This document shows positions 3,529 to 59,526 of a DNA stretch of 64,000 bases, in pieces (position 1 is the stretch's first letter; every line of letters begins with the position of its first letter). The notes beneath the pieces were generated by a model. The model was not told the DNA's origin and ran no database searches. It worked only from the letters and a program-made list of their open reading frames with translations. Origin of the DNA: Octopus vulgaris (lineage: Eukaryota); assembly GCA_951406725.2 (NCBI GenBank), contig OX597816.1:29202001-29266000 (forward strand). Direction: 5' to 3'. Position numbers and translations under genes: made by a program.

Positions 3529-3534
<6 letters not shown>

Positions 3535-4143
3535 TATTGAATTTCTAAATGTCTCAACGAGAATGAGCGGTGCTTGAGCGATAAAGTGATTGTATAAAGT
3601 CAACATAACGTTGACAGTCCCGTAGAGAGAATTGTACCACGGTTATATAGCCCTAGGAAGCATCAACGCTTCCTGTCGGCTTTGACACATTTCCTGTGTT
3701 CTTATATTTGCAAAGGGGAGGCAAGCACCCCCACCAGCTAGACCTAGTAGCCTGGAGACATGAATGTGTCTGTGTCTTGCCCGTCGTCAGTCTGGGTCTT
3801 GCCCGCTCATGTCCCGTTGAGGCATTTAGAAATTCATTATTTCTAATTACGGTGACCAGTGAATAAATTTCACTGTAAATAGATATATTCGCAAGGGCTT
3901 GGTAAGTATCACCGCTAGCGAAGACACGCTACTCTGGACTGACGACAGGCAAGACCCAGAAACATGCTTGTCTCCAGGTTGCTAGTTCTAGCTGGTGGGG
4001 GTGCTTGCCTCCCCTTTGCAAATATAAGGACACAGGAAATGTGTCAAAGCCGACAGGAAGCGTCGATGCTTCCTAGGGCTATATAGCCGTGCTGTAATTC
4101 CCTCTACGGGAGTGTCACGTTATGTTGGCTCTATACAACCACT
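3529..4143. mobile_element. Palindromic non-coding PLE-type insert with ~205-bp inverted arms
   Basis: Arm 3585-3792 is the reverse complement of 3937-4143 with scattered mismatches. The left arm has a ~55-bp extra tail. Flanked by (TA)n and contains an HHR motif. Confidence 0.8.
3934..3977 (+). ncRNA. Type I hammerhead ribozyme motif
   Basis: ctgga-CTGACGA-caggcaagaccca-GAAA-ca(tgct)tg-TC-tccag. Stem I CTGGA/TCCAG, both core boxes, GUC triplet; stem II weak. A decayed copy lies on the minus strand at ~3751-3795. Confidence 0.75.
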
Positions 4144-4158
4144 ATATATATATATACA

Positions 4159-5530: not shown

Positions 5531-7180
<1,650 letters not shown>

Positions 7181-8744: not shown

Positions 8745-9842
8745 CAACTCAGGCTCTGGTCGAATGCTAAATACAAGAAACTAACTAGGAAGATCTAAAT
8801 TATCCAAATCGGCCATATAGATAAAGAATTTTTTATTAACGATTTTTAGACACAGGAAACGTAAAGATGATTGCATGAAGACAAGAGCCAATACAGAAGT
8901 AGAAGGATAAATAAAGTGTATATGCAGTCATTACAAATCAGGACAGCAGAATAGAATATAAAATATTCAATGCCATTCATCAACCGAAAAGATATTTACG
9001 GTGGTTTCAGAGATTTTCTCTTAAACAATGTCTGAAACCGCTTCGATGCGATGGTTCGAAGTTATCAGAGAGAACGCATTACAGAAAAAATAACTACATA
9101 AAGGAAGTTATGGTTGGAACATAAGCAAAGTAAATACGTTTTCGATTCAGAAAGATAAGAAAGTAACCATAGAGCCTCTTTGGCAAGAAACAGAACAAGT
9201 GAAAGATTTAACGTGCAGAGAGAATTTTTTTTTAACAGAAGCCTGCAATGAGCTGAGTGACCGAAACCAAATAATTTGGCAGACAAACAATGAAAGACAG
9301 AAAGTGCAGAACAAGAAATTTTTTATGGGTAAACGTGTACAAGAATATATATCGGAGCGAAAAGACAAAATGAAAAGTGAGAGAGAGAGAAATGAAAAAG
9401 AGAAAAATGTAGACGAAAAATGTGTGAAGACAAGCGAGAGAGAAAAAGGAGAGAGTGAATGAGAGAGATATAGAATATAGAGACAAGGAGAGAGAGAGAG
9501 AGAGTAATGCCGTTGCTAATACATTGTACAAGTTACATTCCTAAGGGAGAGTAAAAACAGTTGGCAAATACGATTTGAAAATGACTGCAGAAAGCGGAGT
9601 ATAAAAACAGAAACTCATTGACGCGGCGGAATTTACACAGTGGAGTGTTAACAAAAAAGAAGAAAAATTACTTTCAAGTCGGAAGCTCTTCAAAATGAGA
9701 GTAATATCTTACAATCTGAGTATAACTGGAAGAGAAGGGACATACGTAGGAATGGCCCTGCACTAATTAGTATTTGAAATTTATAATAGAAAACGTTCAA
9801 AGTGCATATTACGCATACACACATACAAAAACACTCATATAC

Positions 9843-9915
<73 letters not shown>

Positions 9916-9952
9916 CGTATCTACGTATGTGCGTACGTATGGACACACACAT

Positions 9953-9986
<34 letters not shown>

Positions 9987-10204
9987 GTGTAGTAATTTTA
10001 TATTTGCATATACACCTTTTAGTATGCCGCTTAAAGACCGTTCACTGTATTCGGCTATCTGGTGTCATGAACAGTATGTATTTAAATGACACTGGATTTA
10101 CTTCAGGTGAGGCACCTCTCTGCATGGTTATCTATTCCGTGTGTGCATGTGTGTGTGTGTGTGCGAAGCGCTTTAGCATACGTATGCGGACATGTCTGTA
10201 CATA

Positions 10205-10477
10205 TATATATATATATACACATATAAGCATAAATGCATAAACTAATATTCACCTATTAGTATTTCGAGTATATAGGTATCTGTTGACAGCCCGATGTCT
10301 CTTCCAGTTATACTCAGATTGAAAGAAATTACTCTCATTTTGAAGAGCTTCCAGCTTGAGAGTAATTTTTCTTCTTTATTGTTAACTGTGTAAATTCTGC
10401 CGCGTCAATGAGTTTGTGTTATTATACTCCGCTTGCTGCAGTCATTTTTTTATCGTATTTTTATGTTTATGCGTGTG

Positions 10478-10525
<48 letters not shown>

Positions 10526-10800
10526 TGCGTATGAATTTGTATACATAAATTAGTTGATGTGGAATTATAAATCGATCAAGAGTAAGTAGATTTCTACACA
10601 TTGAAACCAATCTGACTTCAATGGCGACCAAATGAAAGAGTTGCTTTAACAAATATAAAAGAATCGTCAACGACGCACATTTAATGCCTCAGGCAAAAGT
10701 GTAGAGACACAGATATTGGGCTGTCAACAGATACCTATATAATCGAAATACTAATAGGTGAATATGATTTTATGTGTTTATGCTTATGTGTGTATATATA
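10205..10800. repeat. Inverted repeat, ~95-bp arms with ~410-bp spacer
   Basis: atattcacctattagtatttcga..tatataggtatctgttgacagccc (~10246-10292) is the reverse complement of ~10718-10764; homology extends outward into TA-rich flanks. Confidence 0.8.
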
Positions 10801-11680
10801 AATAATTTGTTGCCTCATGAATATAGAAAAAGCTTAGCGTCAGTTTGAATGTCTGTTTGTGATCTATGATTTGTCTTTCGTTCCATCCATGCTTGTTTTA
10901 TTGTTTGATGGTTACATTTAACGTGTTCCATTATCCGCGTAATGCATAGTATTTGATTCCCTCATTTACTGTTATTCTTATATTCTTCTGTTCTTTGTAA
11001 TTCGATATATTAGTTACACAAAAAGTGTTCTTCAATTTAACTCAAGCTACCTGTATACACAGTGTACAGGTAGCAAAAGACAACGACCAACAAAATAAGT
11101 GACAAGGCTATCCAGAGGTATTGCAGTGCGATCGTTTCAAATAACTCCATTTAATTGAACAATGCAATCTTTACATCAATTTAAATGCGGAGCAATTCTC
11201 AGCTGCATAAAGACATAGAATTTAATTAGATTAAAACAGATGGACACATTAGTATAATTTTACCTAAAATATCCAAGAAGGGAAGGAAATAGACAAAGAA
11301 CATGCTGTCTTCACTTTAGTTTAGAAGCTACTGAGGTATCAGGAAGAAAGATTTGTTACAGATTTTGCTTGTCACTGTTTTATGGGGTCAGCTTTAATTT
11401 ATGGACTAGTTTATCAAATCTTTGTATATCTAAGACCAAAAGAACAAGGAGCAGTGTCTGTTAGGAAAGAAGCTTAGGGAGTACAGAAGTCATAGTGAGT
11501 ATAGTCATAAAAAAAACTATCAAGATTTATTTGAAGCAATATCATGAGATTTGGTAAAGGAAATCTTAAATCAAAATGTTAGCTGACAATTAAAATAGCC
11601 AGCCACTAGTAGACTATTCATTATGAAACAGGGGAAATTTTTATCATGGATACTGAAGTTAGATATTTTAAGCAATATTG

Positions 11681-19429: not shown

Positions 19430-20157
19430 CACATATGTTTATGAATACACTCAAACACACACACACGGACACAAATAATCATGAAACAACGAACGATACT
19501 TATAAAAGATAAAACTACAATTCAATGACTTCAGGACGTGTTATATAATATTTCTAACACATAAAGTCGGTTAATGTTTAATATAGAATAGTATATAGGA
19601 AATACTTCTTTGCATACTAGTTCTCTCGGTGTATCTATATAGGCAGCCAAACATCAAATCAGTCTTTGAAATCTATCGAAAATGGTGGGAAAGTATAAAA
19701 AATGTCTTTTTACGTGTTTCAATGAAAATGCAGATTTTATTATAAGCTCAACATACGGTGTTTGTTGAAAGCAGATCTTTATTTCTTGTTCACCCTCTTA
19801 CTCTCTGTTTCCATCTCCATCTCCATCTCTCTCTCACAAACACACAACACACACACACAAACACACACACACTCTTCTTATGTCCACATCATATGGACTA
19901 TGATCGCATCTATTCCTTTGCCTTCTCTTTTCTGCCACTCGTCAGTTGAAGCTATGCAAGTCATCGCTATTGTCACAGCAGCAATCACAGAAGTAAAGCA
20001 ATATAGAGAATACTTCTCTCAAACACCTACGATAGAAAATACTGCAAGCTCATATTATTATGTGTTTTTTTGTCTCCAGCTTGTCTAACAACAATGATTG
20101 GATTGATTACTCCCTCTTATGTTTGTAATACATGTTTGTATGAATATATATATATAT

Positions 20158-20355
20158 ATCTGTAAAATAATATGTGACAATTATTCAATAGTCAAGATAA
20201 AACTCTGAGTTTCAGATGCCGAGGTGGAAATCCACAACACCATCTCTTCGGTTTTCTGATATTGAATAATTGTCACATATTATTTTACAGATAAATTTCC
20301 TCTATTTACATAATCTTGAGGTCTCTTTCTTTCTTTTGTTATCTTAACGTTTTTA

Positions 20356-20358
<3 letters not shown>
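20158..20358 (-). mobile_element. Mini palindromic insert in (TA)n with degenerate HHR
   Basis: Arms atctgtaaaataatatgtgacaattattcaata (20158-20190 and ~20259-20292). The minus strand between them reads CCGAAGA-gatg...catc-t-GAAA-ctcagag-TT. ~65-bp tail on the right. Confidence 0.65.
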
Positions 20359-22199: not shown

Positions 22200-24177
22200 T
22201 CTGTTTGATTCTTTCGTTCTCTCCCGGTGTGTCAAGCTTCTTATTTGTCTGTTTGTCTCTCTCTCTCTCTCTTTATCTTTCTCTTTCTTCCTTTCTCCCT
22301 CTCGCTCTTTCTCTCTCTTCCTTCTCAATATCACACATCTGCTGAAAATTTGGGAAGCATAAAATGGGATGAGTTTATAAAACGTTAGAAACATTCGAGA
22401 TTCTGCATGCTTTATCTAAGTTCCCTTTTCTTGTTGAAGCATTGAGATAAGAGTCAGAATAACTGAATTAGAAGATGCGCAGTGTGAATTAGAATTGCAA
22501 ATGTTATGTTCTCCTATGATGATACTGTCAGAATGCAGACATAATATGAAAAGCATAGATCGCTTGCTTCTCATAATGTAATCATTGTTTTCAATTATCA
22601 CGTGATATTTGCCCATAAAATCTATATGCATGCGACTGTAATGAATAAGAATTAAAGAGGCATCCAAGTAATCATATTAACAAGTGATAATCAACACAGG
22701 AGAATGAAGAATATATCTAAAGTATACAGAAATACTTGTCGTGTTCGAGTAGTGTTATTTATTAATAGAGATGAACAACTTAAGTGTTATTCCTGTAGAA
22801 ACGTCAGATGTTATAATCAGATTGGAATTGCAGATTACTAGAAATGTGTAAGTTCTGTGATAGTTTCAGATGATTCATTTAGAGAATACGTAGAAACGGC
22901 AGTAATTACTCCATAAAACATCGATTGACTTGTATAACTGATGTATTATATGCAGAAGGAGTCACGTAAATAAAACTGTAAATCGATAACTATATGCATA
23001 ATTTGAGAACTACGCACATACAAATATGTATATATGTTTATTATTTAAAATAATTTCATTTAAAAATTTTCAACCACAAATTTTGTACAGATTTTGCTGT
23101 AGTCAAATGTTCAAAGTAAATCATGCAAATTGTAGTTATTGTGTTGTTTGGCTTTCTTCTCTATTTAAATAGATTTGTCAGAAGGTACAATTCATTACAT
23201 GTAACTAAGTGATACACATGACTACACGCTTTGTTAAAATATGCCAGACAAAGCTTCTCGTAAAAAAAAAGTTGAAACATAAAGACTGTAATGAATTTTA
23301 ACTGAAGAAAAAGAATATTCATACGGGAATTTATAAATTCCATCGAAATGTGTCCGAGTGTTTTGAACACCTCTTTAAAATCATAGTTAGAGGAGATAGA
23401 AAGATAGGGAAAAGCCAACGTGGCTAATTCTATTTGATAGATGCAAACACTCAGCATTAACAACGTTCTTCATTTAACAGGTTAAAAGTATATAACAAAT
23501 TTTATGAATGGAGTTAAACTTCTTAACCGTAAAACGTTTCTAAATGTATTTTCTTGTACTTTATCTTCATAATTTTTCAAGGAGTAGCCATTTTATTAGA
23601 GCCTAAAGAAATTGCCGGATTGAGCATCGTGCCGTACAAAAGTGATATCCGATCACGAAAATTGAAAGGGCTTAACTCTTGAATTTCGAACATTATATAT
23701 ACTCCACCCAGCAGTGTGCAGGTTTGCTGATCCTGTCACCAGTTAACTACAAACTTGCTTTATTAATCTCTCTGTTATATGAACGATCATGATAATCAAA
23801 CACACACACACACACATACATACATACACACACACACACACATCTGTACCCAGACACATATACATTTGCACACATAAACGTTTGTATGTATTTTGTGAAT
23901 TCAGGATATATGTGCTGTTTGTTCGCAATTGTCGTTTATAAACTTGTGTTCTCTTAATATCAGACATGGTAAACAGTCCTTGGCAAATTTGTATTCCCTG
24001 ATGCTTGTACTTTATCGTCGATATTAAAATAAATATTGGTATTGTTTACAATTTAAAAATAAAAAATTCACCCATTACCTAAGCTTCTTAAAGGATCATT
24101 GAAAACCCTTTCTTCAATTAAATCTTTTTCCATATGAAGCTTCTACTTTAAGATGACTTTAAGATGAGATATATATA

Positions 24178-25449
24178 TTGGGTTGTCCGGAAAGTTCGTG
24201 CCGATTTATAGTAGCTTATCTTTCCACTTGTTTTAGAACATGGTTGAGTCCATAAAATAGGATTTGACTACACCTCCGTTTAGAGCATAGTTTAAGCTAT
24301 CTTTTCGTGGAAGAAGATTTATGTTCCCATAACCTGTGTTAATTCTGTAACCCTTTAAAATGGAAGATAAGAAATAGCATTGATGCTTTTCTTTTCCCGT
24401 AAAGGGAAAAATACCTCTCAAGCAACCAAAGAAATATGCGCAGTTTACGGTGATGTTTCTTTATCCGAAAGAACTGTACGGAAGTGGTTCACAAGATTCC
24501 GAGCCGGAGATTGTAGCCTTATTGATAAAGAGCGATCAGGCAGAGTATCCGCTACAGATGATGACCAAATGAAGTCATTAATTAAGAATAACCCACGTTG
24601 CAAACCTGAGAATTGGCAGAAAGCCTCAACCTATCAAAATCCGTCGTTCATGTGTACCTGGTAAAGCCTGGGTACACAAATCGCTACGATGTTTGGGTTC
24701 CACATGGGTTCAGTGAGAAGAACCTTTTGGATCGCATTTCCATCTGTAATTCGCTTTCTAAACGGATTGAGAAACGCGCTTTTTTAAAGCAAATTGTGAC
24801 AGGTGATGAGAAATGGATTATCTACCGAAATGTCCAGAGAAAGCGATCTTGGAGTAAGCGACATGAGCCACCCTTAGCCACCCCAAAAGCGGGTCTTCAC
24901 CATAATTTTTTTTTGATTTGTGTCTGGTGGGATTGGAAAAGAATTCTGTACTATGAGCTTCTCCCAAGTAACCAGACAATTAATTCTGAGAAATACGGCA
25001 CAGAACTGGACGAATTAAAAGCAGCAATTCAAGAGAAACGTCGAGAATTGGCCAACAGGAAGGGTGTTGTTTTCCAACATGACAATGTAAGACCGCACGT
25101 TCCTTTGGGAACCAGACAAAATTCCTGCAGCTCGCCTGAGATGTGTTACCCCATCCTCCATATTCACCAGATATTGCTCCTTCGGATTTCCACTTATTCA
25201 GGTCTCTGTAGAATAGTCTTAATGGTAAAAAATTTCAATTCCTTGGATGATGTAAAAATATACCTTGTTGAATTCTTTGCCATGAAACCACCTCAATTCT
25301 GAGAAGAGGATCTTTTCCAGTTAAAGGAAAGATGGAGACGCATTGTGCAACAAAACGTTTCATATTTGGTTGCTTAAAAATATAATGGCAAGTACCTATT
25401 GACTTTTTCTTTCCTTTAAAAATCGGCACGACCTTTCCGGACCACCCAA
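24178..25449 (+). mobile_element. Full-length (1272 bp) defective mariner transposon
   Basis: ~30-bp TIRs ttgggttgtccggaaagttcgtgccgattt with TA on both sides. Motifs WVPH, IVTGDEKW, HDNVRPH and frameshifted HPPYSPDIAPSDFHLF. Confidence 0.95.
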
Positions 25450-25683
25450 TAGTTTATGAAAGAAAATCAATTACAGAATAAATTTCCTACTTCCACACAT
25501 ACACACACACACACACAAACACACACAAGAGGAATGAATGTAAAAATACATTACGCAGGATATATTGTAGACAATTCAAAATTATCCACGAATGCATCAG
25601 TGGCCACAAAAATGCAATCAAAAAATTATTATATAAGAAGAGTGCAATAATTATGAATGAATCACAATTACAACGGGGAGGGT

Positions 25684-26705
25684 TAAAAACCTTTACATGC
25701 CTAGAAATAGCAGTCACATTCGCCACAAAATCACTATAACCATTCCTCAACCAAAAATGCTGTCGGCGAGCGACATGACATATAAAATTCAAGACCCAAC
25801 TAAAAATGAAAGATTAGTCCTCAATTGTAATTTCGAAATTAGGAACCAAAAATGGATACATTTGTCTCTTCAGAAGAAATTCCTGTACACAGATTTTAAC
25901 ACCAAAAACATACTTTGGGGCTTAACCTGTGACCCAACCGGCAAGAATAATGTATCAACGTCAATCTGTACAATTCAAATTCTGAATTCACGCGTCATGC
26001 ACACACACAGCGTTTATAAGAGGGGACCAGTTCAACTAGCCACTGCGAAGAACAGTTATATTAGTAAAGCAACGGTATTCTTAACTAATAAGGCGGCTAG
26101 CTGGCAGAAACGTTAGCAAGCCGGGCGAAATGCTTAGTGGTATTTCGTCTGCGTTACGTTGTGAGTTCAAATTCCGCCGAGATCGACTTTGCCCTTCATC
26201 CTTTCGGGGTCGATAACTTAAGTACCAATAACGCACTGGGGTCGATGTAATCGACTTGATACCTATGTCTGTCCTTGTTTGTCCCCTCTGTGTTTAGCCC
26301 CTTGTGGGTAATAAAGAAATGGGTATTCTTAACTGATGACAGTTGCTCTATTAATCTCTATTAATGTTCGCAGTGGCTAGTTGAAATAGTCTCCTCTTAT
26401 AAACGTTGTGCATGACGTTTGAATTCAGAATCTGATTTGTGTATATAGATTTTAACTGATTATTGTTGCCGGTCGGGACAAATGTGAATCCCCAAGGTAT
26501 GTTTTTTGTGTTAAACTCTATGTACGGGAATGTTCTGAAGAGAAGAATGAATCCAGTTTTGGTTCTAACTTTTATTTTTATTTAGGTTTTGAAACTGATG
26601 TCATGTCGGTCGCCGACAGCATTTATGGTTGAGGAGAAATGATATGAGTGATTGTAGAGACTTTATGATGGTTTTGACTGGTATTTCGAGGCATGTAAGG
26701 GTTTG
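25684..26705. repeat. Old long inverted repeat (foldback-like), ~350-bp diverged arms
   Basis: 25684-26050 pairs with 26366-26705, for example ttcaactagccactgcgaa/ttcgcagtggctagttgaa and atgctgtcggcga.cgacatgaca/tgtcatgtcg.tcgccgacagcat. A SINE B sits in the spacer. Confidence 0.8.
26087..26321 (+). mobile_element. SINE family B, full length
   Basis: tRNA-like head with B-box gagttcaaatt. 13-bp TSD ggtattcttaact at 26074-26086 and 26322-26334. Confidence 0.9.
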
Positions 26706-26811
26706 TAATTTATTCAATTATATAAATAAATGAATAAATAAATAAATATATATATATATATGTATGTATGTATGCATATATATATACATATATGATATAT
26801 ATATATATATG

Positions 26812-27306
<495 letters not shown>

Positions 27307-27579: not shown

Positions 27580-27789
27580 TTTTGGTGAAATAGAAAGATG
27601 AATAATCTTGTTGCAGATTAATCAAAAGTTTAACCGATACCTTGGTAGCAAAAATCACAGCAGAAGAAAGCACGGTTGGAGGTACAACCATATGGTGTTG
27701 CAACCGTGCGTTGGTGCGGATAATTGAATTTTAATATTATTAGTGAATTGAAGAAATGGAGTTGAACGAAGATTGAACAGACATCCTTT

Positions 27790-27882
27790 TATTGCATTCT
27801 ACACGTGTTTCGAAAGCCACAATTTACCAAATTGCGATTGAATAAGGAGACCATATTGTGTCTTTCTCTTCAGGAAGAAATA
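27790..27882 (-). ncRNA. Type I hammerhead ribozyme motif (inverted arm)
   Basis: Reverse complement of 29670-29762. Confidence 0.8.
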
Positions 27883-28267
27883 GGAATTCCGTTGGCAGAA
27901 CAAAAACAGAACAGAGGCGCAGCAAAACAAATCGAACGTGGAGGCTCCTAAGAGCCCATAGCCAAACTGTTAATCAATGTATGTTGAAATCTGGTGGTGG
28001 ATGCCTTGAAGATATTTACAGGTCAGGCAGCGGTCAATCCGGTGGGTGAGAGCACGGGGTGCGTAGATGTTCTTTGTGACCGAGACTAAGGTTCTGAATA
28101 TTTTAAGAATATTAGGTCTATTATATGGGGCGAGTAAAAATCTACTTAGAAACATGTGTGTGTGAACTGTTCTATATGTGCGCGGCCGTAAGTTGGTAAA
28201 AAGCGCTACACAATGGTCACTGCTGAAAAATCTGTCAGGCGGCAGAAAATATTTTATGTGTTCGTGT

Positions 28268-28797
28268 GGGAAGATTCAGGGGTTATTCCGTTAGTTAATA
28301 GTGACGTAGTGGAAAATAAAGTAGTAGGCGGCTGCAGTTCTCCCAATCAATATAGTAACAGTAACGCAGTTCTAATTTCAGAAACTAATCCTAATAGAAT
28401 AAGGTTCATGTCGGGGAACTCCAAGATCAGAAATGCCGTTTACCAATGCAAGGTTTACACGGACTCAGATGTCTACTCATATGTCGGGGCCTCATCGTCA
28501 AAATTGGCCTTACGAATCTCCAACCATTACGCAACTTTTCGCGACGTGAATAAATTCCAAGCCACGGGACTTAGCAAGCTAATATGGCGATTGAAGAATA
28601 CGAACTCAAGCTACAGGCTGGAATGGTCAATTTTGTCGGTGGCCCTCCCATTTGATAGGGGCAGAAGGAAGTGCAACCTTTGTGTCTCTGAGCTTTACCA
28701 TATATTGTTCGCCAGAGACCGGATGGTAAACGGACTTTTACAGTCGGCTTTTCGATGCCCCCATTGGTGGCGTTATACTTATCTCGCTTATAACTGA
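28268..28797 (+). CDS. PLE GIY-YIG endonuclease domain, 5'-truncated but open
   Basis: NAVYQCKV...YSYVGAS...RISNHYATF...LSKLIWRLK...WSILS...CNLCVSE...RCPH; highly similar to ORF 35353-36264. Confidence 0.85.
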
Positions 28798-28975
28798 CGC
28801 TTATAAATGATACCTGCACACGGTTACCCTACTTATATGAGTATAGCCCTTGAAAATAATTTTTTGAAAAAGCTTTTTAAGATAGATAGGATTAACCCTT
28901 GCAAGGGGAATTACTCCCATTAGGCTAATGGTGTTTTGTTTTGACGACGTGAGGTTTGTTTTGACAAAGCATGAT

Positions 28976-29372
28976 TAGACGAACACACGAACACATAAAA
29001 TATTTTCTGCCGCCTGACGGATTTTTCAGCAGTGACAATTGTGTAGCGCTTTTTACCAACTTACGGCCGCGCGATTAAACGAACACACGAACACATAAAA
29101 TATTTTCAGCCGCCTGACGGATTTTTCAGCAGTAACCATTGTGTAGCGCTTTTTACCAACTTACGGCCGCGCGATTAAACGAACACACGAACACATAAAA
29201 TATTTTCTGCCGCCTGACGGATTTTTCAGCAGTGACTATTGTGTAACGCTTTTTACCAACTTACGGCCGCGCGATTAAACGAACACACGAACACATAAAA
29301 TATTTTCTGCCGCCTGACGGATTTTTCAGCAGTGACCATTGTGTAGCGCTTTTTACCAACTTACGGCCGCGC
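28976..29372 (+). repeat. 100-bp tandem repeat, ~4 units, inside the PLE 3' region
   Basis: gaacacacgaacacataaaatatttt begins at 28981, 29081, 29181 and 29281; units differ at only a few bases. Confidence 0.95.
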
Positions 29373-29669
29373 ACATATAGAACAGTTCACACACACATGT
29401 TTCTAAGTAGATTTTTACTCGCCCCATATAATACACCTAATATTCTTAAAATATTCAGAACCTTAGTCTCGGTCACAAAGAACATCTACGCACCCCGTGC
29501 TCTCACCCACCGGATTGACCGCTGCCTGACCTGTAAATATCTTCAAGGCATCCACCACCAGATTTCAACATACATTGATTAACAGTTTGGCTATGGGCTC
29601 TTAGGAGCCTCCACGTTCGATTTGTTTTGCTGCGCCTCTGTTCTGTTTTTGTTCTGCCAACGGAATTCC

Positions 29670-29762
29670 TATTTCTTCCTGAAGAGAAAGACACAATATG
29701 GTCTCCTTATTCAATCGCAATTTGGTAAATTGTGGCTTTCGAAACACGTGTAGAATGCAATA
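29670..29762 (+). ncRNA. Type I hammerhead ribozyme motif
   Basis: tatttcttc-CTGAAGA-gaaagacacaat...attgtggctttc-GAAA-cacgtg-TA-gaatgcaata. Long stem II, palindromic stem III, GUA triplet; stem I imperfect. Confidence 0.82.
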
Positions 29763-29810
29763 AAATGATGTCTGTTCAATCTTCGTTCAACTCCATTTCT
29801 TCAATTCACT

Positions 29811-29861
<51 letters not shown>

Positions 29862-30500: not shown

Positions 30501-30584
30501 GAGCATGTGGTCTAGTGGTTAAGAGCGCGGGCTACTAACCCCAAGATACCGAGCTCGATTCCAGGCAGTGACCTGAATAATTAC

Positions 30585-30639
<55 letters not shown>

Positions 30640-30790
30640 CCATCGAAAAATACCTTAGGACTGAGAACCCAGGTTCGAAATTTCCCCAAGTCACCTGATG
30701 AAGGCTGAAGGGTATATCAGCCGAAACGTTGTGTTAACAACAAACAAGATGAGGACAAATATCCGTCGAATGTAAATAATGTAAATAATT
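30501..30790 (+). mobile_element. tRNA-derived SINE family C with HHR in its 3' half
   Basis: A-box tggtctagtgg, B-box-like gagctcgattcc, internal (AAT)n, HHR at 30692-30733, terminal repeat (tgtaaataa)2. Confidence 0.8.
30692..30733 (+). ncRNA. Minimal type I hammerhead ribozyme motif
   Basis: cac-CTGATGA-a-ggctga(agggtata)tcagcc-GAAA-cg-TT-gtg. 6-bp stem II, loopless CG stem III, GUU triplet, stem I CAC/GTG. Confidence 0.75.
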
Positions 30791-34462: not shown

Positions 34463-34533
<71 letters not shown>

Positions 34534-34583
34534 TTAGTGAATTGAAGAAATGGAGCTGAACGAAGATTGAACAGAAGTCGTTT

Positions 34584-34676
34584 TATTTCATTCTACACGT
34601 GTTTCGAAAGGCACAATTTACCAAAATCCGATTGAATAATGAGACCATATTGTGTCTTTCTCTTCTGGAAGAAATA
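34584..34676 (-). ncRNA. HHR motif with core mutation (CAGAAGA)
   Basis: Minus strand: tatttcttc-CAGAAGA-gaaagacacaat...attgtgcctttc-GAAA-cacgtg-TA-gaatgaaata. Stem I pairs over 9 bp with one bulge. Confidence 0.7.
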
Positions 34677-35352
34677 GGAAATCCGTTGGAAAAAACAAAA
34701 ACCGAACAGAGGCGGAGCAAAACAAATCGAACTAGGCTCCTAAGAGCCCATGGCCAAACTGTTTATCAGTGTATGTTGACAACGGGTGGTGGGTGCGTTG
34801 AAGATTTTAACGGGTCAGGCAGCGGTCATTCCTGTGGGTGAGGGCACTGGGTGTGTAGATGTTCTTTGTGACCGAGAGTAAAGTTCTGACTATTTAAAGA
34901 ATATTGGATGTATTATATGGGGCGAAACAAAATCTACTTAGAGACGTGTGTGTTTACTGTTCTATATATGTGTGCTGGCGCAAGTTGGTAAGAAGCGCTA
35001 TTTTCTGGTCACTGCTGAGAACTCCGTCAAGGGGTAGAAAACATTTTTTACGTACGTGTGTGCGTTTGATCGCGCGGCTGTCAGTTGTTAAACAGCTCTA
35101 CACAATGGTCACTGCAGTAAAAACCGTCGGGCGGCAGAAAAATATTTTATGTTTTATGTGTGCGTGTGTTCGTCTAATCATGCCTTGTCAAAGAAACCCC
35201 CCGTCGTCAAAAACAAAGCCCCATTCATCTCACAGGAGTAATTCCCCTTGCAGTGGTTAATCATATTTCTCTTAAAGGCTTTTTCAGAATTTATTACCAA
35301 GGGCTATTTTCATATAAGTAGTGTAACCGGGTGCAGGTATTATTTATAAGCG

Positions 35353-36200
35353 TTATTTATAAGCAAGATAAGTATAACGCCACCAATGGGGGCATCGAAA
35401 AGCCGACTGTAAAAGTCCGTTTACCATCCGGTCTCTGGCGAACAATATATGGAAGAGTTCGGAGACACAAAGGTTGCACTTCCTTCTGCCCCTATCAAAT
35501 GGGAGGGCCACCGACAAAATTGACCATTCCAGCCTGTAGCTTAAGTTCGTATTCTTCAATCTCCATATTAGCTTGCTGAGTCCCGTGGTCTGGCGTTTAT
35601 TCATGTCTCGAAAAGTTGCGTAATGGTTGGAGATTCGTAAAGCCAATCTTGACGATGAGGCCCCTACATAAGCGTAGACATCTGAGTCCGTGTAAACCTT
35701 GCATTGGTAGACGGCGTTTCTGATCTTGGAGTTCGCCGACGTGAATCTTATTCTGCTAGGATTAGTTTCTGAAATTAGAACTGCGTTACTGTCACTATAT
35801 TTGTTGCGAGAACTGCAGCCGCTTACTACTTTATTTTCCACTACGTCACTATTAACTAACGGAATAACCCCTGATTCTCCACTATCTATCAGAGTGCTGT
35901 CATTGCTAGTGCCCGTGGTGCTGCTATTGCCGGAAACGATGCTGGGGTTGCTATTGGGACTCTCTACCCTAACGAGCCGAGCTGCGCTCACCTCACTACT
36001 GCCATTGTTACCGTCAACTACAACACCCCTATTTATAACTATACCCCTAGTATATAATCCCTGGTTGGAGCTGAGATTATGAGTCACTGTACTGGCTCTC
36101 ATATCATTATTACTACTATTATTATTCCTACTGAGCATTAAACCGGGAGCGGAAGAAGCTGTGCCTCCAGAACAAGGAGTTGGTTTGTAAGGAGTTGGTT
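35353..36200 (-). CDS. PLE S/N/G-rich linker plus GIY-YIG endonuclease (partial ORF)
   Basis: ORF 35353-36264: low-complexity linker, then NAVYQC...YAYVGAS...CNLCVSE. The first ~20 codons are read-through from the inverted segment. Confidence 0.85.
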
Positions 36201-36204
36201 TAAG

Positions 36205-36590
36205 GAGTTGGTTTGTAAAACCAACGCATTCATAAACCGGATAAGATGGTTCGTTTTCTTCCACGAGAACGAAGATCTAAAATCGAACCGGACAACAGCA
36301 TCGTCCGAATACGGCCGGCTTTTTAAAACATTGGATACGCCGCCACCTAACCCAAGACTGAAGAAGTTTGAGGACGACCTGTGGGACATAGTTAGAAAGA
36401 TTAAGTTCAGGAAGTCACCCAGGAGAAATGCCCGCCTCAGATACCTAGATAAAATTACCAAGGACATTAATAGAACGGACGGAGTCCTGGTCCAGTCCGA
36501 CAAGACCAGGAACACATACAAGCTACCCATTAAGCAGTACCTAGATTTACTCGGTAAAGAGATCAAGAAAAATTATAGAAAAACCAATTG
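36205..36590 (+). pseudogene. PLE N-terminal (pre-RT) coding segment, inverted
   Basis: FINRIRWFVFF...LKKFEDDLWDIVRKIKF...VLVQSDKTRNTYKL..QY..LL: the DKT/DKG motif region that precedes PLE RTs. Confidence 0.75.
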
Positions 36591-36639
36591 GAGTACCAGA
36601 TGGGATTCATGGCTTCTAGCTGACGCGATGCTACGTGGT

Positions 36640-37350
36640 GCATGAAAGATTAGATTCGGGTTATTTTTGAAGAATCTGTTATCCTCGAACTGTTTCTTTC
36701 TGTTCACAAACCTTCTGATCTTCTGGCACTTTTCTATGATCTTCTGCTTTAATTGTTCTATTACTGCATCAAACCCGTTCTTCCGTATTATATATTTCTT
36801 CACTAATTTTTCCCGGTCTGTCTTTTTCCCATTGTTTTCCAGTTTCCTGTTAACATTGCTCAATATGTCTTTGATCTTGACTTGCCTGCATTATGTCCTT
36901 TTCAATGCATCGTTTCCACCATGGTTTCTTTGCTCCGCCATATTTTGTTCTCTTATATCGTAATTGTTCCTCAACAAGTAGTGCAATAGGTGGGAGGAGA
37001 TTCCTTGCTTGTATTTTCTCCTTCGTCTGGATGTATGGTATAACAATATTTATCTTTTGTGTTACCTTATTTATCATAGTCCTATCTATCCTTCTCATAT
37101 TTATGGAGATATTTTCTTCTGAAGGATTCAAGTCGGTGAGTCTTCTATGTAATTCAAACAATTCAATATCTAAAAGTTGGTTTATTTCCTCTGCATGTCA
37201 ACCTACCACAGTGTCAGGGTTCATAAAGGCAGAAAACATAGAACTTGATACTACCACTGCTATTTGAGGCCTACATCGAGCCGAAGTATACGAATATCTG
37301 GGAACCAATGAAGGTGATGGTATCTAACACTCTAAAATGAAAGCGAAAAT
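36640..37350 (-). pseudogene. R4/Dong-like non-LTR retrotransposon fragments
   Basis: Minus strand KPWWKRCIEKDI...KKYIIRKNGFDAVIEQLKQKI...KQFEDNRFF resembles the pre-RT region of R4-type ORFs. An inverted plus-strand piece at ~37280-37350 reads YEYLGTNEGDGI*HSKMKAKI (RT YLG motif). Confidence 0.65.
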
Positions 37351-47324: not shown

Positions 47325-47329
<5 letters not shown>

Positions 47330-47960
47330 TATAAAATGAGATAGGGGTTGACAATTCAACCCACCATGGGATAACATATATCCAATATACTGCTAGAGAG
47401 GTACCTAACAAGACAAATACATAAATGTTAAAAATTGCCATGCAATTAATTCATCTACTGTATTATGTGGGCAAAGGTAAAAATATTACCGTAAATTAAT
47501 ATAACAAAATTAGAAAATGGAGAAAACATACTTAAATCAATCAAACATCAACCATCAGATGATACCCAATCAATACTTTATTACACCATTACATAACAGT
47601 AAAGGCATTATACAAAATATATTGTAAATATAATTAGACAAGGAAATAGAAATATAAAATATAAAATATAATATATAATTATATCATATCTGACAGCTGT
47701 TTCGTCCGTAAGGGCAAGTATGGCTTATAGGTTAAATGAGGCATACTTGCCCTTACGGACGAAACAGCTGTCAGATATGATATAATTATATATTATATTT
47801 TATATTTTATATTTCTATTTCCTTGTCTAATTATATTTACAATATATTTTGTATAATGCCTTTACTGTTATGTAATGGTGTAATAAAGTATTGATTGGGC
47901 ATCATCTGATGGTTGATGTTTGATTGATTTAAGTATGTTTTCTCCATTTTCTAATTTTGT
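47325..47960. mobile_element. Near-perfect palindrome (~220-bp arms) in (TA)n with two half-HHRs
   Basis: Arms ~47503-47722 and ~47742-47960 with a ~20-bp spacer. Each strand reads ggac-GAAA-cagctg-TC-agat, but no CTGANGA box. ~180-bp tail on the left. Confidence 0.85.
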
Positions 47961-55999: not shown

Positions 56000-57873
56000 T
56001 ATTTTTAAAAATGTTGGCATAAAGTCATGATACAGAGTAGCTTGTGGGCTAGACAAAAAAACGCCCGCCGATTCTTTGCTTCTCTAAAACATAATTTTTT
56101 ACACAAGAAACAAACCGAGTTATTGAACCTCTTACTTCCGTTTTACAATTATTGGACTTTAGTCAATTTACGAATTGAGGCGCTGAGCCTCTATTACACT
56201 TAAACACTATAACACTGAGGCTTTTAAACTCTTGTCAATTTTCCTCCACAACATCTCTTGTGCCCGTATACTCCGCCAATACCCACGCCCCGTTTAAAAC
56301 TAAGGCGGGCTCCGAGTCGGCGTCGCCCGGCCACAAGCAATATTCCTCTTTGAGTTCCTCTTTGTCTTCCTCTAGGGTCGAGGTAGTCATTTCTACCGTT
56401 GGCGCCACAACCATCTGAAAATGGTGTCTCTTTCCCTGCCGGTGGCACAACGGACAATGTTACGGCTTCCTCTGTCGGTGGCACGATTCCCACCGAAGAG
56501 GCCTTGGGAGATGCCGGCAGTACACTGCATGCCTCCAGCACTGTCTCATGCTTTTTTCTCTTTTTCTCTTTTATCTTTGGTGCGGAAGGGGTTGGCTCCT
56601 TCGCCATAACCGCAGGAACCGCGCTTTTCTCCCGCAACGCCGGTATCATTGTTGCTCCACTTCTTCCTTTTCATCCCTTTTTTCGGGGCAGGTCACTTCC
56701 CCTCCTCCATCTCTCCTTCCGGAGGAGGAGGGGGTTCTTCCACAACTAACTGCTCCAGCACCCTGCTCTGGTCCTTGGGACAGTTCTTCTTAATGCGGCC
56801 AGGCTCAAGGCACAGATGGCACTTGGGTGGAGGGCGTCCCTCAAGAATCACCGGATACCTGGACCCGGCTATCCTCAAAACATCTGGGAACATCAGATCA
56901 TCGTCTGATTGGGTCCACAGGGTCAAAACTGCTTTTCACCCCACCCAATCAGCTGCAGGCATTATTTTAACATTCAACAGCTTGGCTCCGCTTCCACCCA
57001 GATCCTCGGCGGATAGTATCCTCTATTCCTGGTGGCAGCCCACAGACCCATGCTCTTGTCAATTTCCCCCCACGATATGTGGGCAGAAACAGAATTTTCT
57101 CCCCTTGCAGGGGCAGGCTCGCGAAGATGCGTGCCTCCTCAGGGGTATCAAATAGCAACCGCACTGTTGCATATTTGACACCGCTTGTAATAAACTTGAT
57201 GGTTGCCAGGTATTCTTCCAACATCTTCTCAATATCTACTTGAGATAACACAGTGATGGTGTAGAGGGACTTGGAATATGTCCTCAACACCACTATTCTC
57301 TCATTAAGGTCTCTTATCCACTGCTTGGGGAGCACAATTTCCCTCTCCAAGACAGTGTTTTTGCATTTTGTTGCCATGCTTGCAAAAAAATTAAGAAAAA
57401 TATTCGACACAAGATCCAAAATGTTCCAAATAAAATGTCCAATATATTCACATAAAAGAACAGAAAGACAGAGCAGAGAAAAGAACGAAGGAAAACAGTT
57501 CAATTCACGTCACTCAGGTAATCCACAAAAATACAGTTAGTTACTCCAGTTCACCGTCGTAGCACACAAACATTCCTCCACAAATTCATAAATTTTACAG
57601 ATTTTGGTATCGAGACACGCCCACAAAGCCAACAATTCTCACAGCTAAGCGAGTCACTCGACGCGACCGCAGCAGACAAATGTCTAGTACCCAGTGAAGA
57701 TTTCTTATTCGAGAAAAAACAATAGCAAAAAATAAAAACTCCCAACCGATTCCCTAAAAAGACAGATGCCCCCTTTGCAGTCTTTTATTCAAGACGGCTT
57801 CCAAGCACGTTAGTCACTTACACGGGTATTCACTCTCGTAAGTGACTGACAAACTGACGCATGCGAAAGCGAG
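56000..57873 (-). mobile_element. ORF1-only LINE-like element, copy 2 (1874 bp between TSDs)
   Basis: 16-bp TSD ggtaagcaagYtactt at 55984-55999 and 57874-57889. ~495-bp leader, one frameshifted ORF, ~230-bp 3' UTR ending ttttaaaaataa. No RT or endonuclease. Confidence 0.85.
56235..57377 (-). pseudogene. L1/Tx1-type ORF1-like protein with zinc knuckle (frameshifted)
   Basis: MATKCKN...VRLLFDTPEEARIF...TRAWVCGLPPGI...YPVILEGRPPPKCHLCLEPGRIKKNCP (CX2CX4[H to R]X4C), then a K-rich and low-complexity tail. Confidence 0.75.
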
Positions 57874-57911: not shown

Positions 57912-57943
<32 letters not shown>

Positions 57944-57948
57944 AATAA

Positions 57949-57999
<51 letters not shown>

Positions 58000-58004
<5 letters not shown>

Positions 58005-58195
58005 TATATAGAAGGAGCTTCTACAGGACTAGAACTGTTTCATTCAAGAGAAATCATCAGGAGCTTCCTGATGATTTCTCTTGAATGAAACAGTTCTAGT
58101 CCTGTAGAAGCTCCTTCTATATAATAAATTAATTTTACTCTGCTATGTATTGAGTACCTTATTTACTGTGGTTAACCCCGAATCAACCCGGGACC

Positions 58196-58198
<3 letters not shown>
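58000..58198. mobile_element. ~200-bp palindromic double-HHR mini element in (TA)n
   Basis: 58000-58129 is an almost perfect palindrome with a ~70-bp tail; (TA)n on both sides. Confidence 0.9.
58060..58114 (+). ncRNA. Type I hammerhead ribozyme motif (mirror copy on minus strand ~58014-58068)
   Basis: ggagcttc-CTGATGA-tttctcttgaat-GAAA-cag(ttctagtc)ctg-TA-gaagctcc. 8-bp stem I, short stem II TTC/GAA, stem III CAG/CTG, GUA triplet. Confidence 0.88.
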
Positions 58199-58239
<41 letters not shown>

Positions 58240-58242
<3 letters not shown>

Positions 58243-59426
58243 TGGTTGGACAAAATAATGGAAACATCTAGCGTCATAGCATCATAATTTTGATATATTT
58301 ATAAAACCGTCAAAATCTTGCTTGTTTTTATGTTTTTTTAAAATTTATTATTAATGTTGCGTAATATGTTTTGCTAAAATTGCAGTTTCTTTTCAGATAT
58401 CATCGAAAAAATATAATTACATTTCATTAAAATGACAAATCTATCGAACTTTCAAAGCGGCCAAAATGTTGGTGCCGCTATGAAAGGCGCTAGCGTAACG
58501 AAAATACCCGAAATGTTTGGTGTAACAAGAAGTACTCTCTCCGAAGTAATGACAGCCTTTGAGAAAGAGGGAAAATCTTCGTCGTCGAAACAAAACTTCA
58601 GAAGAAAAGCAAAACTTTGAGAAAGAGACTCTCGGACTGTCGAAATATTAGAAAGGATCACAAAGTACGGCTCCCAAAATTACTGCAGGGCTTAATGATC
58701 CACTTTCCATTAAAGTTTTTTGCTGAGAGCTGCACGAAGCCGGATTTCACGGGAGAACTGCAATCAGAAAACCACTGCTTTCAAAAACAAATGTTGCAAA
58801 GTGTTTACAGTAGAGTAAAAACCTACAGAATTGGTCCCTAGAGAAGTGGAAGATTGTTATTTTCTCGGACGAGTCATCCTTTGCCTTATTTCCGACCACC
58901 GAGTATACATGTGGAGACAACCAAAAGAAGCATTTGGCCAAGATTGCCTTCTTCCTGCTGTTAAACATGCAGGAGCATCGGTGATGATTGGAGTGGGAAG
59001 GGGCTATAGCTTGCAAGCCCGGCGGGCCAGTGGTTTCCCTTCATGGCAGATTTAATAGTCGACTATTCAAGCATTTTATATGATCAAATTCATCCTATGT
59101 TTGCAGAACTGTTTCTGGAGGTAAATGCAATCTTTCAGGATGATAATGCACCAATTCACACATCTAAAGTTTTTCCTGAATGGCCCGATCTACATTCTAG
59201 TGAAGTTGAACATATTATCTGGCCACCACAGCCACCAGATCATTTATAGTGTATTTTAGAAAAACAATTAAGGAGTCGATATCGTCCACCATCATCCCTA
59301 CAGGAACTGGAGACTCTTTTGGCTGAAGAATGGACAAAAATTATTTTGGAAGCAATTCAAACTTTGTATGAGTCCTTACCTCGAAGAATTCAAGCTATAA
59401 TTATTGCCACAGCGGGTCGTACCCCA
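58240..59426 (+). mobile_element. Tc1-like transposon, defective, cut by the assembly gap
   Basis: TA|CAGTG left end; motifs FSDES, VKHAGASVM, FQDDNAPIH, WPPQPPD, LYESLPRRIQA across frameshifts. Confidence 0.9.
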
Positions 59427-59526
59427 NNNNNNNNNNNNNNNNNNNNNNNNNNNNNNNNNNNNNNNNNNNNNNNNNNNNNNNNNNNNNNNNNNNNNNNNNN
59501 NNNNNNNNNNNNNNNNNNNNNNNNNN
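59427..59526. other. Assembly gap (100 N)
   Basis: Read directly. Confidence 1.

Follow-up and report, generated by a model that had tools for sequence, protein, structure and literature searches.

Inverted 5' copies, one-sided tails and pairs of hammerheads on opposite strands are all published features of Penelope-like elements (PLEs). PLE insertions are described with an inverted, 5'-truncated copy and with a tail of 30-40 bp that is present at one end only (PMC8557442). In the insertions analysed in PMC3846280, the inverted pLTR has a 15-bp overlap with the direct pLTR and is shorter than it by 37 bp, and palindromes are found at the head-to-head junctions. Pairs of minimal hammerheads that lie on opposite strands, 100-700 bp apart, have been ascribed to truncated PLEs; PLE hammerhead motifs act as dimers, and their activity is described as low and dimer-dependent (PMC4209133). 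In work on a PLE protein, the protein nicks and extends both strands and uses uncleaved RNA, and two internal start sites define the tail (PMC11167929). How the inverted structure is formed is called an open mechanistic question in PMC8557442.

The locus described here occupies positions 57999-58198 of a stretch of 64,000 nucleotides from Octopus vulgaris (contig OX597816.1, positions 29,202,001 to 29,266,000). This whole stretch is called the window below. With a probability of about 0.82, the locus derives from a PLE with an endonuclease, most likely a member of the Hydra clade: it would be a dead insertion with extreme 5' truncation, joined head-to-head to its own inverted copy. The part that was copied would most likely be about 140 nt of the PLE 3' end (the hammerhead and the tail, 58059-58198), to which the inverted copy was added.

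Structure of the locus

The locus consists of a palindrome with a tail, set between two (TA)n runs (Table 1). The arms of the palindrome are complementary at 64 of 64 positions and enclose the loop GCT (58063-58065), for a total of 131 bp. With 0 mismatches in 64 bp, the locus is by all appearances young. As RNA, the palindrome has a predicted folding energy of -108.1 kcal/mol (z -26), and 0 of 200 shuffled sequences were equally stable. A first-pass annotation of this DNA had reported a palindrome of 130 bp with a tail of about 70 bp, located inside (TA)n and free of coding sequence. These four points are confirmed, the last of them for ORFs of at least 100 aa, none of which overlaps 57999-58198.

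Table 1. Features of the locus at 57999-58198, and other loci in the window with the same or a similar layout
Feature	Position	Strand	Remarks
Left (TA)n target microsatellite	57912-57998 (to about 57999)		Imperfect; target-site duplication not readable in (TA)n
Left arm	57999-58062	-	Putative PLE end in inverted copy, tail absent; abuts (TA)n directly; 64/64 vs right arm
Mirror hammerhead	58013-58069	-	Core 58060-58054; H17 58022 (by mirror symmetry); 2 contiguous helix I pairs
Fold-back junction	58059-58069	+	4-bp microhomology 58059-58062/58066-58069 around loop 58063-58065; 58059-58067 also helix I 5' strand
Type I hammerhead motif, Hydra-like form	58059-58115	+	Predicted cut 58106/58107; form matched by eye to published table
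Right arm	58066-58129	+	Putative PLE 3' end, sense strand
One-sided tail	58130-58198	+	69 nt; probably the stretch between two reverse-transcription start sites (model of PMC11167929)
Right (TA)n target microsatellite	58199-58239		Tc1-like remnant from 58240 on
Locus with the layout	3529-4147		Tail 52 nt; arms 191/211; hammerhead cores in both arms, one degenerate
Locus with the layout	5650-6255		Tail 27 nt; no recognisable hammerhead
Locus with the layout	20154-20358		Tail 62 nt; no recognisable hammerhead
Locus with the layout	27580-29818		Tail 155 nt; perfect hammerheads in both arms
Locus with the layout	47326-47960		Tail 173 nt; half hammerhead motif
Loosely fitting locus, not counted	25683-26708		Old inverted pair 295/354; degenerate cores in both arms; dispersed repeat inserted at centre

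No second copy of the element was found in the 64-kb window, either by BLAST, which returned only the locus itself, or by a motif scan that allowed up to 3 mismatches. The unit is also not tandemly repeated at 57999-58198. A search for exact 26-nt matches in bacterial and archaeal genomes gave 0, as expected for an animal element.

The genome is AT-rich and abounds in microsatellites, and the neighbourhood of the locus is rich in remnants. To the left lies a LINE-like ORF remnant (56967-57509, minus strand), which was labelled by eye and has no Pfam match. To the right lies a Tc1-like remnant of a decayed DNA transposon (58240-59426, also labelled by eye), followed by an assembly gap of N at 59427-59526, 1.2 kb from the locus. 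Elsewhere in the window, a decayed mariner-like DNA transposon occupies 24176-25451, with the Pfam family Transposase_1 at 24610-25302.

The plus-strand hammerhead

The plus strand carries a hammerhead core in type I layout, with CUGAUGA at 58068-58074, GAAA at 58087-58090, and GUA with H17 at 58106; helix I is the open one. Helix I has 9 bp (58059-58067/58107-58115), helix II has 3 bp and a tetraloop, and helix III has 4 bp and a semi-palindromic loop of 8 nt. The G10.1-C11.1 pair is highly conserved in hammerheads (PMC4209133). Here helix II is closed by U.U (58075/58086) in its place.

The control for chance occurrence was a crude block-wise dinucleotide shuffle of the window (n=100). A descriptor as strict as the plus-strand motif, or one relaxed to a 5-bp helix I, found 0 matches in the 100 shuffled windows. 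The loosest descriptor found 7 cores in the real window and a mean of 0.58 per shuffle. The complete plus-strand hammerhead of the first-pass annotation is thus upheld by its core, its three helices and the shuffles. Rfam is silent: the whole window has 0 matches at the gathering score, and 0 of the 44 matches at E<=10 around the locus are hammerhead families. Other PLE-type motifs in the window are likewise missed by Rfam. Most of the 44 sub-threshold matches are microRNA-type hairpins that the palindrome or the (TA)n runs give rise to; a microRNA reading was rejected.

The 3' strand of helix I can also form a hairpin of its own over the cleavage site (58103-58122, -5.9 kcal/mol). In the folding model, this hairpin might hold back cleavage as a native brake, or else be what is left of a longer helix I that the parent had.

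The mirror motif and the fold-back centre

The same core is present on the minus strand, at 58060. It failed a filter for at least 3 bp in helix I, having 2 contiguous pairs, and its best helix I duplex reaches -7.8 kcal/mol, compared with -14.2 kcal/mol on the plus strand. In a constrained fold of the mirror, the core-proximal pairs of helix I are lost. A helix I of 2 bp does occur in a hammerhead of D. virilis (PMC4209133). Stem I of the mirror had been noted earlier as imperfect, and the fold-back centre had been placed within the 5' strand of stem I; both observations hold, the second because 58059-58067 spans the centre. The description of the locus as two divergent hammerheads holds in part. 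There are indeed two cores on opposite strands that overlap at helix I, but they amount to one motif and its damaged mirror, not to two designed ribozymes.

The 3' strand of helix I (58107-58115) predicts its partner at 58059-58067, across the centre of the palindrome. Bases 58059-58062 belong to the left arm and yet extend helix I; if they were unrelated to it, the chance of this would be about 1/256. Because of this continuation, the parent element most likely already carried the 58059-58067 strand, with a 4-bp hairpin that involves the start of the core. This native 4-bp microhomology in helix I is then most likely the place of the inversion. In that case the overlap at stem I would be a scar of the junction, and the minus-strand ribozyme would be a copy that lacks its 5' strand.

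Folding of the transcript

Taken alone, the 57-nt plus-strand motif is predicted to fold as a ribozyme. Its hammerhead fold has -15.1 kcal/mol and its minimum -15.4 kcal/mol, a difference within 0.3, and helix I has a probability of 0.91. For RNAs that start at 58056-58061, the predicted probability of helix I is 0.55-0.91, while it is 0.00 for 4 of 4 starts tested at or before 58050. Nine extra bases on the 5' side are already enough to abolish the predicted helix. The full 200-nt RNA has a minimum of -120.0 kcal/mol and a hammerhead fold of -15.7 kcal/mol, leaving a gap of about 104 kcal/mol. Whichever strand is transcribed, the complementary arm precedes the ribozyme.

The first-pass annotation had suggested that the transcript could alternate between a long hairpin and the ribozyme. 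A functional switch of this kind, or a bidirectional self-cleaving cassette, would make use of the folding shown by the isolated motif. The proposal is scarcely credible in view of the energy gap in the full RNA, the position of the complementary arm on both strands and the loss of helix I upon the addition of nine bases, and the alternation is not borne out. A read-through transcript would be predicted to form a 64-bp hairpin that buries both motifs, and therefore neither should cleave. If the locus is transcribed at all, the product would likely be double-stranded RNA. Pairing of helix III between molecules is possible (-12.8 kcal/mol), and it would need tandem copies, which are absent here.

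Relation to Hydra-clade elements

The locus has an inverted, 5'-truncated copy arranged head-to-head, a tail on one side and a hammerhead in the terminal repeat, and in these it agrees with PLE insertions. At 69 nt, its tail exceeds the 30-40 nt that have been published (PMC8557442). An earlier suggestion of a minimal PLE insertion product is supported by these features, and a narrower wording is possible: the end of a Hydra-type PLE together with its inverted copy.

Several points of detail are suggestive of the Hydra clade. As counted by eye in the table of PMC8557442, helix II is closed by U.U in 14 of 25 Hydra-clade families (11 of the 14 come from one species, two of them with an identical motif), and the same helix III stem is found in 4 of the 25. 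The target (TA)n is preferred by 26 of 27 Hydra families listed there, also counted by eye, and one Hydra family has a 5' inverted copy that bears an antisense hammerhead. From the numbers in the same paper, 26-149 nt separate helix I from the 3' end in 23 of 24 Hydra consensuses, a set that leaves out one family whose listed motif is at the 5' end. In the locus this distance is 83 nt on the tail side; at the short end it is 14 nt, below the Hydra minimum of 26 nt. Loop III is another difference, with 8 nt here and 1-3 nt in 25 of 25 Hydra families (PMC8557442). Naiads also target (TA)n, but they are described without canonical hammerheads (PMC8557442).

The parent element was found neither within the 64-kb window nor by a motif search of the PMC8557442 supplement. 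In that supplement, where line-wrapped FASTA can hide matches, three motifs from the ribozyme region had 0 matches. Two of three tail motifs also had 0 matches, and the third had 3, of which the 2 shown are unrelated elements. Since no parent was found and no ORF is linked to the locus, the assignment is drawn from the form of the motif and from the target, which make membership of the Hydra clade likely. No published description of the locus's family, or of palindromic PLE mini-elements, was found in the open-access literature.

Closure by U.U is also seen in an axolotl retrozyme, whose monomer reaches 22% cleavage in 1 h (PMC7229834). The locus might accordingly be a fragment of a non-LTR retrozyme monomer, taken from tandem repeats of 170-400 nt with type I hammerheads and inserted by the PLE machinery. 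Retrozymes are themselves proposed to be PLE derivatives and have been linked to PLE ends (bioRxiv 10.64898/2026.07.22.740005). Such an origin is nevertheless highly improbable, as the locus shows no tandem repeat, is arranged head-to-head with a one-sided tail, and has a unique part of only 140 nt.

Loci of the same layout in the window

A self-comparison of the window gave further inverted repeats. Nine of these were chosen by eye and aligned; three short TIR-like pairs, as well as dispersed inverted copies, were left out before aligning. In 5 of the 9, one arm ends in (TA)n, while the other continues as a tail of 27-173 nt to the next microsatellite (Table 1). Besides the loosely fitting locus of Table 1, three further aligned loci were ambiguous and were not counted as matching. 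When the palindromic locus was compared by BLAST with eight other loci, the only shared sequence was a 13-nt AT-rich match. Because they share no sequence with 57999-58198, the siblings are regarded as separate families that show one process. The five are not proven PLEs, since two of them have no hammerhead and one has half of one.

The siblings bear on two other explanations of the locus. The first is a fold-back artefact of the assembly or of the library, which would fit the perfect arms, the position between low-complexity runs and the N gap 1.2 kb away. It is a very remote explanation: the symmetry ends before the tail, the flanks differ (LINE-like on the left, Tc1-like on the right), and older loci of the same layout have diverged arms (191/211, 280/291), which would not be expected of an artefact.

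The second is that the 200 bp form a discrete mini-element, non-autonomous and descended from a PLE end, which spreads as a unit with the help of a PLE protein in trans. The 3' end and the tail, which are the likely cis signals, have been kept, and the absence of mismatches makes the locus young. Moreover, pLTR sequence alone sufficed for mobilisation in trans (PMC3846280), and non-autonomous PLE derivatives have been reported (PMC8557442). This explanation is improbable, however, because the window holds a single copy in 64 kb, because the RNA would be a 64-bp duplex, and because the same layout is found in unrelated sequences that differ in centre, in tail and in the length of the arms, which is what a general by-product would show. 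The self-contained mini-element proposed in the first-pass annotation therefore finds no support within the window, where there is one copy and where other families have the same layout. It is just as improbable that the 200-bp unit founded, or belongs to, a palindromic family of non-autonomous PLE derivatives, retrotransposed as whole units from hairpin RNA. If this were true, the mirror would silence the ribozyme in such a family, so that the template is never cut.

Further inverted repeats and hammerhead-like motifs of the window have features of their own. The locus at 47326-47960 is a near-perfect palindrome in (TA)n (227/230, with a 7-nt centre), each arm of which has only the 3' half of a hammerhead. 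Since the arms have only this half, its fold-back appears to lie within helix II. At 3529-4147, one of the arms is broken 2 nt ahead of the core, and within the 144-nt centre there is a piece that matches the tail, which suggests extra template jumps. Nested inverted repeats (150/163 and 90/100) surround microsatellites at 9566-10810, where the layout is ambiguous. A small element at 26932-27181 has inverted ends of 35 bp and a minus-strand hammerhead-like motif (core 27117) with a palindromic helix III. Finally, a hammerhead-like core at 30695-30745 (plus strand) has a clean helix II and no valid helix I or III; it adjoins (AAT)n and lies downstream of a tRNA-like stretch at about 30505-30575.

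A sibling with an endonuclease

An informative sibling lies at 27580-29818. Its inverted arms are 535 bp long (532/535) and carry perfect hammerheads on both strands, with a helix II region of 55 nt. It also contains a GIY-YIG-like ORF (28192-28797), four tandem repeats of 100 bp and a one-sided tail of 155 nt. A second, older copy is found on the minus strand at 34532-36140. This copy has an endonuclease ORF as well, and its hammerhead core has a substitution. In both insertions the tail-less end meets (TA)n at the same nucleotide (34532 in the second copy), so this end is taken to be a fixed site.

An exhaustive search with the endonuclease ORF of the second copy gave 2542 relatives at E<=0.001. 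One of them, a 658-aa ORF, has the motifs DKT and YRDD as well as an endonuclease at its C-terminus; by eye it resembles the Hydra-clade alignment in the supplement of PMC8557442. Among the relatives that were scanned, 1 of 6 has a sub-cutoff match to GIY-YIG. An N-terminal ORF fragment at 36142-36645, on the strand opposite to the second copy, contains RW and DKT, motifs that are described for the Hydra clade (PMC8557442), and it matches the 658-aa relative weakly (E 0.002, 33 aa). ORFs of the clade are characterised by RWK, DKT and a CxCx5C linker, and by the lack of CCHH. The sibling endonuclease has no Pfam family; word-indexed homologue searches and a sequence search of the PDB were empty. 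In the ESM Atlas it falls into unnamed clusters and one cluster with GIY-YIG on 11% of its members. By motif comparison, 27580-29818 appears to be a Hydra-type PLE insertion.

The tail-less segment of this sibling is longer than the tail-bearing one (1547 and 689 nt), and the junction has a microhomology of about 3 bp. For this reason, a one-step fold-back of a single cDNA cannot make 27580-29818. Two cDNAs primed from opposite target strands can produce its structure.

Formation of the inverted structure

The template that was copied into the locus had not been cut at 58106. Within the reading as a PLE end, two routes to the inverted copy can be described.

Two cDNAs. The GIY-YIG endonuclease of the parent would nick the (TA)n run, and the reverse transcriptase would copy uncleaved RNA from a distal start at 58198 and stop in the 5' strand of helix I. 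The opposite target strand would then prime a second cDNA at a proximal start, 58129, which is 69 nt further in; this step is suggested by the in vitro work on another PLE and by the sibling locus. In the last step, the two cDNA ends would anneal through the 4-bp microhomology at 58059-58062/58066-58069, which is present in the sequence, and would be filled in.

Snap-back of one cDNA. Alternatively, a single cDNA that stopped at 58059 could have primed itself on the 4-bp hairpin, copied 60 nt and then become linked to the left (TA)n through microhomology; or RNA could have been self-primed on an antisense template (PMC3846280). At the junction, a 3-nt loop caps a stem of 4 perfect base pairs; the two arms agree at 64 of 64 positions, and the left end lies in an AT-rich stretch that is able to pair with (TA)n. 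Palindromic junctions are also read as self-priming in PMC3846280. As a DNA hairpin, however, the junction is very weak (about -1 kcal/mol). Furthermore, no single step of this kind can give rise to the sibling at 27580-29818, whose tail-less end is a fixed site that the second copy has as well.

The product of a snap-back at the same 4 bp is identical to that of the two-cDNA route. If the locus is a PLE end, the two-cDNA route is estimated to have slightly better than an even chance and the snap-back slightly less than one; over all origins of the locus, the snap-back is a substantial but minority prospect.

As a single locus, 57999-58198 matters little, since it illustrates in short form a pattern of PLE insertion that has been published. 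With regard to the open question of how inverted structures form, it is a clean and apparently young record whose junction can be read to the base. Together with the sibling at 27580-29818, it leads to a testable model in which both (TA)n strands act as primers and two fixed start sites are used. The inner end lies within or next to the hammerhead in 3 of the 5 window loci that have hammerhead sequence. If centres do pile up at the ribozyme, this would hint that the motif has a part in bringing reverse transcription to an end.

Comparison with known systems

Hydra-clade PLEs. Penelope-13_HM, Penelope-9_HM and Hydra-1_Obim are examples from this clade (PMC8557442). Like the locus, they have a type I hammerhead near the 3' end, a short helix II that is closed by U.U and capped by a tetraloop, a 4-bp helix III, a (TA)n target and a truncated, inverted 5' copy with an antisense hammerhead. 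Unlike them, the locus has no ORF, has a loop III of 8 nt instead of 1-3 nt, and measures 200 bp as a whole insert. It also has no sequence match to the published families in the motif search of the PMC8557442 supplement.

Non-LTR retrozymes. These elements, notably HHR_Amex2, resemble the locus in being non-coding and in having a type I hammerhead with U.U at the base of helix II (PMC7229834). They consist of head-to-tail repeats of 170-400 nt that give circular RNA, whereas the locus is a single head-to-head unit.

Opposite-strand hammerhead pairs. The PLE pairs of Schistosoma mansoni and of the Cotesia bracovirus also consist of hammerheads on opposite strands that come from truncated PLEs (PMC4209133). 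The members of those pairs are 100-700 bp apart, while in the locus the starts of the two cores are separated by 8 bp, with an overlap at helix I. In contrast to the minimal hammerheads of that paper, the motif of the locus has a real helix III and no G10.1-C11.1.

Penelope elements of Adineta vaga. In these elements, for instance Pen2a_Av, an inverted copy overlaps the direct one at a short palindrome and the tail is one-sided (PMC3846280), as in the locus. The inverted pLTRs of A. vaga flank full ORFs and come with a tail of 31 bp and target duplications of 8-10 bp (PMC3846280), whereas the locus has a 69-nt tail and no readable duplication in its (TA)n.
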